Below are positions 7,259 through 9,125 of a stretch of 64,000 nucleotides of DNA, piece by piece. Where the stretch lies: IMG/VR virus record IMGVR_UViG_2721755676_000001. The stretch is one strand, 5' to 3'. The DNA comes from a virus (taxonomy: Duplodnaviria; Heunggongvirae; Uroviricota; Caudoviricetes). The translations under genes and the position numbers were made by a program. Each line of letters starts with the position of its first letter. Position 1 is the stretch's first letter. Under the pieces are notes generated by a model. The model saw nothing but the letters and a program-made list of their open reading frames with translations, had not been told where the DNA came from and did no database searches.

Positions 7259-7791
7259 CACCGCTGACAGCATACACAATCAACTACCGCTGATAGCATA
7301 TCGAGAGTCTATCTCACCGCTCACAGCATACTTTACTCGATTTTTTACCGCTGACAGCATACTTAAGACATTGCATGAATAATGTGTCCCGGTATGGGTA
7401 TAACCAGAACAAAATTACCGCTGGCAGCATACGAAGGTCTGACATATACCATTAATTACCGCTGATAGCATATCCAAACAAAAATTCCTCAATAAAACAC
7501 CGCTGACAGCATACATTCTATCAGGGAGTAGCAGGCAATAAATGCCTTTCACTACAAGCAATCAGCGCAATAGCAATAGAATGTTAGTGAGCGCAAACCT
7601 ATATGGAATGCACTCTTCGAGGTTAGTAACCACTGGGGAGGTATGGCAGAGCATTGAGTGGTGATAGATGATTTACCGCTCACAGCATACGTTCATCTCA
7701 CTATACCGCTGGTAGCATATCTTTAACCGTTCACAGCATACTTTTCAGAAAAATAGCCGCTGATAGCATACATTTCACCGCTGACAGCATA
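7259..7791. repeat. Iteron array downstream of repA (incA-like), about 12 copies of ACCGCTGACAGCATAC with variants
   Basis: Repeats CCGCTGACAGCATAC / CCGCTGATAGCATAT / CCGCTCACAGCATAC at irregular 20-80 bp spacing. Confidence 0.8.
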
Positions 7792-8886
7792 TCAAAGCAG
7801 TTTGAGACTATTGGAAAGGATCTCAATCATCTTGATATTTTCAGGCGTCAAATTCTGCGAAAGTTCGGTTATCTTATTGATAATGTTCTGTTTGGCATCA
7901 ATTTCCCCGGCTTTCTCATCTGGTTTTTTGGGTTCGATGTCTTCAGGTTTTGGCGGTGCGACTTTGAGTTTTGGATTGCGGCTGTGAATCTGGATATAGA
8001 TCGACCGCCCACGCTTAATCTCGCTGTATTCGAGATAGCCCAAATCTTGGAGAGCTTTTAAGCCGTTACGTATAGTCTGATTCTGCGAGCTGACATTCCT
8101 GCTACTCAAATTGAGTCGCGCACGCAATCGAGCAAGCGATACCGGCGCAGGCTTGGTTGGAAGACTTTCGATGAAGGTGTACAGAGCCTGTGCTGTTTCT
8201 TTGCGTGGTAGCTTATTGATAACCTTTAACTGCAAAAGAACCTTATGGTCAAAGCGATATAGTTCGGCCAGCTTCGGTTCTGCATAGAACACCACCGTAT
8301 CTTTCTGCTCGTTGTAGTCCACGCTATTGATGAGGTGCACCATCAGAAGCGAGATCTTGTTAGAGCCGTCGACGTTCTTTTCTTCATACGTTCTCTGGAA
8401 AGACAGAGTTGTACGCATGATCTTCAAAAGACTGTTTGTAAGCCGGTCGCGGAGTGTTTTGCGGATCTGTGACGATGGATAGCCACAAAACTTCGCAAAT
8501 TTCGTGATGCTTAACTCGACACGACCGTTAGGTTCGCCGTATTCTGCCAGCGAACGCACAACGCCCACCCACGTTTTGAAATCATGATCCATGTCGAGAC
8601 GAGGACCGGTTATCTTGATATCGGAATAGCCTTCAGAACGGGCTACTTCGAGCTGGACAAGCTCCTTTGAAGCATCGATCTCATTTGGCTTGTTACGTTT
8701 ACTGTATTTTGTTCCCTTAAGCGTGGGGACGAACAACCCCAGTCGCATCAACGCAATTGGTTGGACTGTATTGTTGCTATTAGGGACAAGTTCCCCTGTG
8801 TACAATTCAAGGGAACCTTCTTCAAAGTTGTCGATGTTATCTTCTACTTCTTTGTTATTTTTACCTTTTTTATTTTTTGTGGACAT
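7792..8886 (-). CDS. repA: Iteron-binding plasmid replication initiator RepA (364 aa from MSTKNKKGK)
   Basis: ORF flanked on both sides by the same iterons; first 40 codons of track ORF 7792..9006 are translated iterons, so start reassigned to 8886. Confidence 0.75.
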   Translation of the reverse strand: MSTKNKKGKNNKEVEDNIDNFEEGSLELYTGELVPNSNNTVQPIALMRLGLFVPTLKGTKYSKRNKPNEIDASKELVQLEVARSEGYSDIKITGPRLDMDHDFKTWVGVVRSLAEYGEPNGRVELSITKFAKFCGYPSSQIRKTLRDRLTNSLLKIMRTTLSFQRTYEEKNVDGSNKISLLMVHLINSVDYNEQKDTVVFYAEPKLAELYRFDHKVLLQLKVINKLPRKETAQALYTFIESLPTKPAPVSLARLRARLNLSSRNVSSQNQTIRNGLKALQDLGYLEYSEIKRGRSIYIQIHSRNPKLKVAPPKPEDIEPKKPDEKAGEIDAKQNIINKITELSQNLTPENIKMIEILSNSLKLL

Positions 8887-8905
8887 GTGGACACCTTTGT
8901 CATTC

Positions 8906-9009
8906 AACCGCTGACAGCATACTTGATTTGCCGCTGACAGAATACCAAAAACAGTTGGCAGCATACGGTGAACCGCTGACAGACTATCAATTACCGCTGA
9001 CAGCATACA
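8906..9009. repeat. Iteron array upstream of repA (incC/origin-like), about 5 copies
   Basis: AACCGCTGACAGCATAC, GCCGCTGACAGAATAC, TTGGCAGCATAC, AACCGCTGACAGACTATC, TTACCGCTGACAGCATAC. Confidence 0.75.
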
Positions 9010-9044
9010 TGAACATGACTTCAGACCAGTCGTGGCGCGGCTTA

Positions 9045-9125
9045 CAGCGATCGGGGATCTTATTTGATCTATATAAGGATCTATCTATGGATCTCTTTAT
9101 TAGGATCTATCCTGTGGATATGTGA
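9045..9125. promoter_or_regulatory. Putative plasmid origin core: cluster of 6 GATC sites in GGATCT repeats plus DnaA-box-like TGTGGATAT
   Basis: GATC at about 9049, 9056, 9066, 9079, 9091, 9105; TGTGGATAT at 9113-9121; same layout as P1 oriR next to incC iterons. Confidence 0.5.

Follow-up and report, generated by a model that had tools for sequence, protein, structure and literature searches.

Organization of the replicon

The region from 7221 to 9129 of the window (the whole 64-kb stretch of DNA that was analyzed) contains a single initiator gene, repA, which is flanked on both sides by copies of the same short repeat (iteron) and is preceded by DnaA boxes and Dam sites. The following elements can be distinguished.

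7221–7244, no strand assigned: terminator-like hairpin, bidirectional, delimiting the replicon on its outer side, next to a convergent gene for 70 aa (7000–7212)
7261–7513, minus strand: distal control iterons (incA-like), seven direct copies
7676–7791, minus strand: proximal control iterons (incA-like), five direct copies, the first of which abuts the repA stop codon
7792–8886, minus strand: repA, initiator of 364 aa with its most likely start (stop codon included in the coordinates)
8886–8894, minus strand: DnaA-box-like motif GTGTCCACA, degenerate (two mismatches to TTATCCACA), overlapping the repA start codon
8908–9007, minus strand: origin iterons (incC-like), five direct copies of TATGCTGTCAGCGG (in the sense of repA), upstream of repA
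9031–9041, minus strand: GC block, GCCGCGCCACG in the sense of repA, separating the GATC repeats from the iterons and identical in P1 oriR
9049–9107, no strand assigned: six GATC (Dam) sites, in repeats phased at ~7–14 bp within a stretch of 67–70% A+T
9113–9129, minus strand: tandem DnaA boxes, TTATTCACA and ATATCCACA in the sense of repA, abutting, at the outer edge of the origin

The initiator RepA

The start of repA is most likely the ATG at 8886, which would yield a protein of 364 aa. In relatives, PGAP annotates a longer ORF of 404 aa from 9006, the start of which would fall within the iterons. The short form is favored because the long form is ruled out by an in-frame stop in the homologue from K. 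oxytoca, and because the repA CDS of the phage record PhiR41_1 is annotated at 1095 bp (364 codons plus stop).

The sequence-only reading had assumed an initiator of the iteron type, and this assumption is borne out by the similarity searches. Residues 118–239 match the profile of the Rep_3-type winged-helix domain (WH1), Pfam PF01051 (Rep3_N), with 37.5 bits (cut-off: 22.4, E 3.9e-9), and the protein also matches PHROG 775 (E 5e-133). The identity to the RepA of P1/P7 amounts to 43.5% (tblastn, E 2e-64) or 46% (local tblastn, E 2e-72), while the initiator of the F-plasmid RepFIB replicon shows 52% identity (BLASTP, E 2e-110). The homology to P1 RepA and F RepFIB covers the core of the protein (residues ~30–310). 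The C-terminal tail of ~55 aa is lacking in P1 RepA and is common to the Klebsiella and SSU5/pHCM2 homologues; the alignment with F RepFIB reaches its first half. No NCBIfam family was assigned to RepA. With regard to the two-winged-helix fold known from the structures of RepE, pi and pPS10 RepA, neither the single sequence (phmmer) nor a family profile of seven sequences gave a meaningful match in the PDB. Likewise, the comparison of the family profile with F RepE was not significant (hhalign, probability 1.9%), and the AlphaFold model predicted from the single sequence was unusable (pLDDT 40). The family membership is nevertheless settled by the homology to P1 RepA and RepFIB, which supports RepA as a predicted iteron-type initiator of the P1/RepFIB family (Rep_3 superfamily).

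The origin core

At the outer edge of the origin, the sequence TGTGGATAT (9113–9121) had been noticed as DnaA-box-like. It is the reverse complement of ATATCCACA and differs from TTATCCACA at one position. A second box that had been missed, TTATTCACA (9121–9129), abuts the first and matches TTWTNCACA exactly. In the whole window, five matches to a DnaA box were found versus 7.5 expected, and a lone match is therefore not significant; it is their location and their alignment to P1 oriR that make the boxes significant. Tandem DnaA boxes occur at the same place in the Klebsiella relatives, in JK004 and in P1. For the degenerate motif at the repA start codon, relatives display GTATCCACA, CTATCCACA or TTATCCACA.

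The GATC sites are located at 9049, 9056, 9066, 9078, 9090 and 9104, and this is the sole place in the 64 kb with at least four GATC in 70 bp (background: 0.44 per 100 bp). They had been described as six sites in GGATCT repeats. The number is correct, but the context GGATCT applies to four of the six, the remaining two being CGATCG and TGATCT. The A+T content of the block is 0.70, compared to 0.53 for the window. By analogy, the block would be the part of the origin where the DNA unwinds and where its methylation is sensed (SeqA).

The block of DnaA boxes, GATC sites and GC block can be aligned base for base with the annotated P1 oriR, and at the DNA level the alignment of the origin core includes the DnaA site, Dam sites 1–5 and the incC iterons. 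The interval 9020–9129 also gives blastn matches of 82% to many other plasmids. A crude scan of 7150–9300 for a sigma-70 consensus on the repA strand returned none (the hexamers of the P1 promoter PrepA, TTGCTA/TAGGAT, are themselves weak), and no convincing –35/–10 pair was recognized by eye. Autoregulation through a promoter that overlaps the iterons thus finds no support in the sequence.

Iterons on both sides of repA

The whole window was scanned with the pattern CCGCTGACAGCATA, allowing up to three mismatches, and 100 shuffles served as control. The scan yielded 24 matches versus 4.6 expected, a number that was reached in none of the 100 shuffles. Seventeen of these matches lie within 7261–9007, all on the plus strand. 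A further match in this interval (8540, minus strand, three mismatches) is located inside repA and looks like a chance occurrence. The approximate counts of the sequence-only reading, five iterons upstream and twelve downstream of repA, turned out to be exact (8908–9007 and 7261–7791, respectively).

The origin iterons at 8908, 8931, 8952, 8973 and 8994 are helically phased, and the third copy (8952), with three mismatches, deviates most. In sequence, the downstream control repeats agree with the origin iterons. All twelve are direct, and a spacer of 162 bp (7514–7675) splits the proximal five from the distal seven. No RNA feature was detected in this spacer, as the Rfam gathering scan of the window returned only a group II intron and the tRNA search (ARAGORN) returned none. 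In one deposited record these iterons are mislabeled as attL/attR.

The control array varies in length at its distal end (the 7261–7513 side) among near-identical relatives. Replicons with at least 99% identity elsewhere contain arrays of 9 (PhiR41_1), 12 (here) or 13 (p4_0.2) copies.

This variation implies that part of the array is dispensable, which would suit another role for the twelve repeats, namely that of a partition centromere or of a second, alternative RepA origin instead of an incA-like copy-number locus. The absence of an adjoining parAB operon, unlike in P1, and the 5+7 arrangement of all-direct repeats around a 162-bp spacer, unlike P1 incA, point in the same direction. However, the repeats share the origin-iteron sequence and begin at the repA stop codon, as they do in P1 incA, and downstream iteron arrays were found in every family member examined, F RepFIB included. 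A second origin is further contradicted by the lack of a DnaA box, a GATC cluster or an AT-rich block beside the repeats. A centromere would instead be expected elsewhere, near the ParA-type ATPase and the small downstream ORF of the relatives. Such a role is therefore considered extremely unlikely, and the array is best read as an incA-like control locus.

Closest relatives and type of the replicon

The replicon (7200–9200) is 99–100% identical in ~120 plasmid records, with a coverage of at least 80% in 117 of them. Three records, all intact circular plasmids, are 100% identical over this interval, and p09EL50 shows 99.6% identity. The relatives at 99–100% that were inspected are circular, ~105–115 kb in size and non-mobilizable, and belong to MOB-suite rep_cluster_488. 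The replicon also occurs in three records deposited as phages, and it is 99% identical in the phage record PhiR41_1 (host: K-12 MG1655).

It was reported that the RepA of pECOH89 is identical to that of p09EL50 and 48% identical to that of pLF82 (PMC3999498); the latter figure agrees with the 47.9% obtained here for RepA versus Cyrano/pLF82. The replicon is essentially the IncFIB(H89-PhagePlasmid) type (typing: PMC12838234) of pECOH89 and p09EL50, which are phage-like plasmids of ~110 kb from E. coli/Shigella. These plasmids also share the backbone and the virion genes of the present element. This copy differs by a group II intron (3246–5515), an IS91-family insertion (9236–10918) and its accessory segment at 44.25–46.7 kb, and in a few relatives the length of the control array departs from that observed here.

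Comparison with P1, F RepFIB and SSU5-type replicons

The P1-like layout (oriR, incC, repA, incA) that had been proposed matches the annotated P1 replicon element by element. In both, tandem DnaA boxes are followed by phased GATC sites, the GC block GCCGCGCCACG, five iterons phased at ~21 bp, repA and a downstream array. The five copies of P1 incC are spaced by 21/21/21/22 bp, those of the present origin by 21/21/21/23 bp. In both cases the carrier is a phage with a lifestyle as a low-copy plasmid. There are, however, clear differences. The P1 iteron ATGTGTGCTGGAGGGA is unrelated to TATGCTGTCAGCGG, and P1 contains five GATC sites instead of six. Its incA comprises nine iterons (three direct, six inverted), whereas the twelve found here are all direct. 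P1 RepA counts 286 aa, while the present protein of 364 aa contains N- and C-terminal extensions. Finally, P1 possesses parA-parB-parS downstream of its replicon, where this element has none, and the carrier of the P1 replicon is a P1-like myovirus, in contrast to the SSU5-like siphovirus here.

The closest classical initiator is that of F RepFIB (IncFIB, AP001918 type). Here too, a DnaA box is followed by five phased GATC sites and by iterons that flank rep on both sides. The iteron core CTACAGCTTAT is different and occurs in mixed orientation, and the replicon is located on a conjugative multi-replicon plasmid, not on a phage.

SSU5, pHCM2, pMT1 and pLF82 (Cyrano) belong to the same phage-plasmid supergroup and represent the IncFIB(pLF82-PhagePlasmid)/IncFIB(pHCM2) types. 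The same genes neighbor repA on either side, iterons flank repA on both sides, and their RepA (48% identity) has a comparable C-terminal tail. Their iteron, however, is A[A/T]CCACTGTAG, with downstream copies in both orientations, and their GATC cluster lies ~430 bp away from the main origin iterons. The SSU5/pHCM2-type replicon is a distinct lineage within the same phage backbone, presumably with a different incompatibility specificity.

When the relatives are ordered by RepA, iteron and layout are unchanged in those from Klebsiella (80–85% identity), whereas SSU5/pHCM2/pMT1 (48%) and P1/JK004 (43–45%) combine other iterons with the same general layout. The iteron thus co-varies with RepA, while the DnaA/GATC core is conserved.

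Linkage to virion genes and lifestyle

The window contains genes for terminase, portal, capsid and tape measure (from annotation, with Pfam matches for terminase and capsid). Except for the insertion of two mobile elements and the exchange of one accessory segment, it is colinear with the circular 113-kb plasmid pSJC33-2, so that replicon and phage genes are placed on one molecule and not on different ones. Other circular E. coli plasmids of ~110 kb from the SSU5 supergroup are likewise colinear with the window and contain terminase, portal, capsid and tail genes. The supergroup has been defined as a group of phage-plasmids (PMC7969092). Its SSU5-like member Cyrano is present at ~5.5 copies, makes virions and can be induced by ciprofloxacin (PMC9928086), and for the present type the lifestyle was described with pECOH89 (PMC3999498). 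For the group, the phage-plasmid lifestyle is hence already established in the literature. Together with the colinearity, this supports the phage-plasmid interpretation of the sequence-only reading, and the 64-kb window most plausibly represents part of an SSU5-supergroup phage-plasmid of the pECOH89 type.

The group II intron and the IS91-family element are both absent from the closest relative, and the latter sits 106 bp from the origin. Its exact junction has no record among 5,426 complete E. coli genomes. Taken with a preprint in which SSU5-rep-like sequences are mentioned as integrated in the chromosome of S. Agona (bioRxiv 10.1101/2025.09.12.675607), these insertions could suggest an integrated or defective prophage remnant, in which the replicon would be a silent relic carried passively by the chromosome or by a larger composite plasmid. 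Yet the colinearity with a circular plasmid extends over the entire 64 kb, and the window displays no chromosomal flank. Moreover, intact circular plasmids contain identical copies of the repA ORF, the DnaA boxes, the GATC block and each of the 17 iterons, and the IS element lies outside the region equivalent to the minimal P1 oriR. A remnant of this kind is accordingly judged highly unlikely, and the phage-plasmid is retained as the preferred interpretation.

Beyond the control array only small ORFs of unknown function follow, and no parAB adjoins the replicon. A P1-type partition system beside the replicon was rejected, as tblastn of P1 ParA/ParB against the window gave only E > 0.5. An 'AAA ATPase' of 214 aa (23085–23729) was also rejected as ParA, being AAA_28/kinase-like. 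The suggestion that partition genes might be found elsewhere holds for the relatives. These contain, ~70 kb from the replicon and outside the window, a gene for a ParA-like ATPase of type Ib (AAA_31/MipZ/CbiA), which differs from the ParAB type of P1 and is followed by an ORF of 117 aa.

Proposed function of the replicon

The region is very probably the maintenance replicon of the plasmid-prophage state of an E. coli SSU5-supergroup phage-plasmid, that is, an iteron-controlled theta replicon of the RepFIB/P1 family and the IncFIB(H89-PhagePlasmid) type. By analogy with P1 and RepFIB, RepA monomers would load onto the five origin iterons, and host DnaA at the flanking boxes would assist the opening of the adjoining AT-rich, Dam-methylated GATC repeats. 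After firing, the origin would be hemimethylated and may be sequestered by SeqA. RepA bound to the origin iterons may also repress its own promoter. Through titration of RepA and through pairing with the origin ('handcuffing'), the downstream array would keep the copy number low. For RepA binding, origin firing, Dam/SeqA dependence, autorepression and handcuffing alike, this proposal draws on homology to the better-known systems. The geometry of handcuffing could even differ from that in P1, since the control array consists of twelve all-direct copies split 5+7. For lytic replication, the element probably uses its separate genes for helicase, primase and polymerase instead.

A more speculative possibility, regarded as rather unlikely, is that the downstream array acts as a natural, recombination-driven copy-number dial. 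As the control iterons are all direct, unlike those of P1 incA, unequal exchange can add or remove units. If the array length sets the copy number, gene dosage could be changed reversibly in these phage-plasmids, in which CTX-M-15 is often present, and the anatomy of the replicon would be linked to plasmid-copy-number heteroresistance. A 2026 preprint is said to deal with phage-plasmid heteroresistance, and such a dial may already be described there.

Significance

The replicon type is already known and is ordinary for its group, the well-known E. coli viruses with a lifestyle as plasmids of ~110 kb; the region resolves no open question. An element-by-element map of the origin (DnaA boxes, GATC sites, 5+12 iterons and the likely repA start) appears not to be found for this type in the searchable literature. 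It would be useful for annotation, for the prediction of incompatibility and for the construction of shuttle or curing tools. The main value lies in the correct annotation of the 64-kb stretch as belonging to a phage that is maintained in the form of a low-copy plasmid. Phage-plasmids of this class disseminate resistance genes, blaCTX-M-15 among them, and are often wrongly classified as either 'plasmid' or 'phage'.

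Architecture of the replicon

The region 7213-9130 contains a single long minus-strand ORF, that of the initiator gene repA, with repeats on both sides. A scan of the 64-kb window for CCGCTGACAGCATA with at most three mismatches returned 24 sites against 4.6 expected, a number reached in none of 100 shuffles. Seventeen of these lie in one shared orientation within 7261-9007; an extra site within repA (8540, opposite strand, three mismatches) is chance-like. The elements are, in the sense of the gene:

9113-9129: two abutting DnaA boxes, ATATCCACA and TTATTCACA, next after the GATC cluster
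9049-9107: six GATC sites, beyond the upstream iterons
8994, 8973, 8952, 8931, 8908: five origin iterons upstream of repA, spaced 21, 21, 21 and 23 bp
7791-7676: five proximal control iterons downstream of repA
7513-7261: seven distal control iterons downstream of repA

The iteron consensus is gTATGCTGTCAGCGGT. The first downstream iteron directly abuts the repA stop codon, and a 162-bp spacer separates the proximal from the distal group. The GATC cluster is the sole locus in the window with at least four GATC per 70 bp, and the A+T content around it is 67-70%, compared with 53% window-wide. The sequence-only reading had described this as a P1/RepFIB-style replicon. Its coordinates, counts and motifs were all correct in the iteron, GATC and DnaA-box scans; the DnaA-box-like site that it noted is present, but the second, abutting box had been overlooked.

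In the P1 reference record, whose oriR carries experimental annotation, a tandem DnaA site, five Dam sites and five incC iterons (spaced 21/21/21/22 bp, with the repA promoter inside them) are followed by repA, by nine incA iterons from the stop codon and by parA, parB and parS. Nucleotide alignment with P1 covers the whole origin core of the window: the DnaA boxes, the GATC heptamers and the GCCGCGCCACG block. The similarity ends exactly at the iteron start. Several details differ. The window has six GATC sites, one of which corresponds to a degenerate GGTC in P1, where there are five. The twelve control iterons are all direct and split 5+7, unlike those of P1, where three are direct and six inverted. 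Also unlike P1, the DnaA-like motif beside the repA start codon is degenerate (GTGTCCACA; in relatives GTATCCACA, CTATCCACA or TTATCCACA). A consensus scan for promoters over 7150-9300 gave no site on the strand of repA. Overall, the P1-like reading is supported by the layout, the origin alignment to P1 oriR and the homology of RepA.

The RepA initiator

The mechanical ORF start at 9006 gives a protein of 404 aa, the form annotated by PGAP in relatives, and falls within the first iteron. AAAGG stands ahead of the ATG at 8886, a start that yields 364 aa and agrees with the one annotated in PhiR41_1, a phage with a near-identical replicon. In a K. oxytoca homologue the 364-aa-type start is the sole possible form, because an in-frame stop lies just upstream of the equivalent ATG.

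RepA matches Pfam Rep3_N above the curated cut-off and PHROG 775 (E 5e-133). Its identity with P1 and P7 RepA is 43.5% across 278 residues (E 2e-64; 46% in a second comparison, E 2e-72). It shares 47.9% identity with RepA of the phage-plasmids SSU5 and Cyrano, 52% with the F-plasmid RepFIB initiator (E 2e-110) and 85% with a Klebsiella phage-plasmid RepA. With these matches it is an iteron-type initiator of P1/RepFIB kin, as had been proposed. Compared to P1 RepA it is longer by ~12 N-terminal and ~55 C-terminal residues; the homologues from Klebsiella and SSU5/pHCM2 also have the C-terminal tail, the first half of which is covered by the F RepFIB alignment. Sequence and profile searches against the PDB gave no matches, hhalign against RepE was insignificant and a single-sequence AlphaFold model was unusable; the predicted winged-helix fold rests on the Pfam match and homology rather than on structural comparison.

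Co-variation of iterons and RepA

The 110-bp origin core has ~82% blastn matches to many other enterobacterial plasmids of 95-150 kb. When the most repeated 11-mer near repA was sought without supervision in eight replicons, three iteron types emerged. Klebsiella elements (RepA 80-85%) keep the iteron and layout of the window, with five upstream and eight downstream copies, six GATC sites and tandem DnaA boxes. SSU5, pHCM2 and pMT1 (RepA 48%) carry A[A/T]CCACTGTAG, whereas P1 and Cronobacter phage JK004 (RepA 43-45%) carry ATGTGTGCTGGAGGGA. A further repeat occurs in F RepFIB, preceded by a DnaA box and five phased GATC sites. Iterons and RepA thus change together, and the part of the origin that serves host factors stays conserved, a pattern that would be expected for a working initiator-iteron pair.

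In the record of Klebsiella phage pJN2-26, two 20-bp direct repeats flanking repA (1378-1397, 2648-2667) are labelled attR and attL. These are RepA iterons, and the labels are an artefact of prophage-finding software.

The molecule carrying the replicon

About 120 plasmid records, mostly from E. coli and Shigella, contain the 2-kb replicon at 99-100% identity (117 cover at least 80% of it). The plasmids inspected are circular, ~105-115 kb, non-mobilizable and of rep_cluster_488. Three entries deposited as phages also have the replicon, PhiR41_1 (host K-12 MG1655) among them. The entire window is colinear with the circular plasmid pSJC33-2 (record 91054 down to 32097), with three exceptions:

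3246-5515: insertion
9236-10918: insertion
44252-46722: replaced accessory segment

The virion genes include:

52618-53874: terminase large subunit
53901-55475: portal
56410-57285: major capsid protein

The tape-measure gene starts within the window. From the annotated genes and the colinearity with pSJC33-2, terminase, portal, capsid and tail genes stand alongside the replicon on one molecule, which is what the sequence-only reading had invoked for a phage-plasmid lifestyle. Identity to pSJC33-2 is 99.9% for 1-38479 and 96.5-97% for 38427-64000. This drop at ~38450 indicates a mosaic formed by recombination between lineages, in which the closest relatives of the replication/metabolism half are not those of the structural half.

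The insertion at 9236-10918 is an IS91-family element (Pfam Y2_Tnp and Zn_Tnp_IS91; transposase 9407-10606, minus strand) located 106 bp beyond the DnaA boxes. It removes the first ~9 codons of a conserved neighbour gene (PHROG 2105; intact start at ~9208 in relatives, remainder here 10919-11540). The exact junction was found in none of 5,426 complete E. coli genomes, 1,032 of which contain the IS itself. At 3246-5515 a group II intron is inserted (RT/maturase ORF 3902-5425; Rfam Intron_gpII domain 5429-5515), adjoining a truncated IS3-family transposase fragment (5578-5994).

The 2.5-kb accessory segment, where pSJC33-2 has different small genes, encodes a FljA-like 'repressor of phase-1 flagellin' (44255-44773, minus strand; Pfam Flag1_repress, E 1.3e-68), through which the phage-plasmid may interfere with host flagellin expression. 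The backbone also bears the chromosome-like housekeeping genes apbC and metG (methionyl-tRNA synthetase; 33607-36898), as in related plasmids, and an N6-adenine DNA methyltransferase of its own (25929-26522; PHROG 111, E 8e-65). The latter could methylate the origin GATC cluster without host Dam; 'dam' is listed for the plasmid pECOH89 (PMC3999498).

Partition genes

P1-type parA or parB was found neither after the control array, where P1 carries them, nor anywhere else in the window, and no ParA-type ATPase was detected among the scanned window ORFs. The sequence-only reading had advised a look for partition genes elsewhere, and pSJC33-2 encodes a 222-aa type Ib ParA-like ATPase (AAA_31, MipZ, CbiA) followed by a 117-aa ORF (record 12363-13390). 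This gene is ~70 kb from repA, beyond the window, whereas the P1 partition genes adjoin repA. The pair is likely the partition operon of this plasmid group; the pECOH89 announcement names parA and parB among shared genes (PMC3999498).

The stretch 48599-50627, which lies just ahead of the terminase genes, encodes two ParB_N-domain proteins in succession and then an ABC-type ATPase. Both ParB_N proteins match the PHROG 'ParB-like partition protein', with E 2e-79 and 1e-112. The three genes could have an accessory role in packaging or as a nuclease, or serve segregation in an unconventional way.

Proposed mechanism

The replication biology of P1 and RepFIB is established, and the steps proposed here are modelled on it; the direct evidence covers the parts, their order, their conservation and the homology to characterised replicons. 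RepA monomers would load onto the five origin iterons, while DnaA on the flanking boxes would assist the opening of the neighbouring AT-rich GATC repeats. Firing would need Dam methylation of these repeats, by host Dam and possibly also by the element's methyltransferase, and hemimethylation would hold back refiring. Origin-bound RepA is expected to repress its own transcription, and the downstream array would cap copy number by titrating RepA and pairing with the origin. Lytic replication is probably the role of the DnaB-like helicase, primase and ligase that the element encodes.

Array-length variation and relation to known phage-plasmids

Replicons that otherwise share 99% identity or more differ at the distal end of the control array (window 7261-7348). 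Twelve downstream iterons are present in the window, in pSJC33-2 and in most others; PhiR41_1 has nine through an 87-bp iteron-to-iteron deletion, and the relative p4_0.2 has thirteen, with one extra 26-bp unit. Given that every repeat is direct, an obvious source of this variation is unequal exchange.

The SSU5-like elements form an established supergroup of phage-plasmids (PMC7969092). A 2014 announcement presented pECOH89 as a phage-like plasmid and gave its RepA as identical to p09EL50 RepA, with 48% identity to pLF82 RepA (PMC3999498). p09EL50 is 99.6% identical to the window replicon, and the published 48% agrees with the 47.9% between the window RepA and SSU5/Cyrano. In plasmid-typing papers the window-type replicon is named IncFIB(H89-PhagePlasmid) and the SSU5/pLF82 lineage IncFIB(pLF82-PhagePlasmid) (PMC12838234; the term appears in 25 papers). 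Cyrano, the pLF82 phage-plasmid, is present at ~5.5 copies, produces virions and is ciprofloxacin-inducible (PMC9928086). Iterons were not found mentioned in the phage-plasmid literature searched. The fine replicon map may be unpublished, though homology leads straight to it. Both the replicon type and the kind of phage-plasmid that carries it are known, and the variation in array length is a small new observation.
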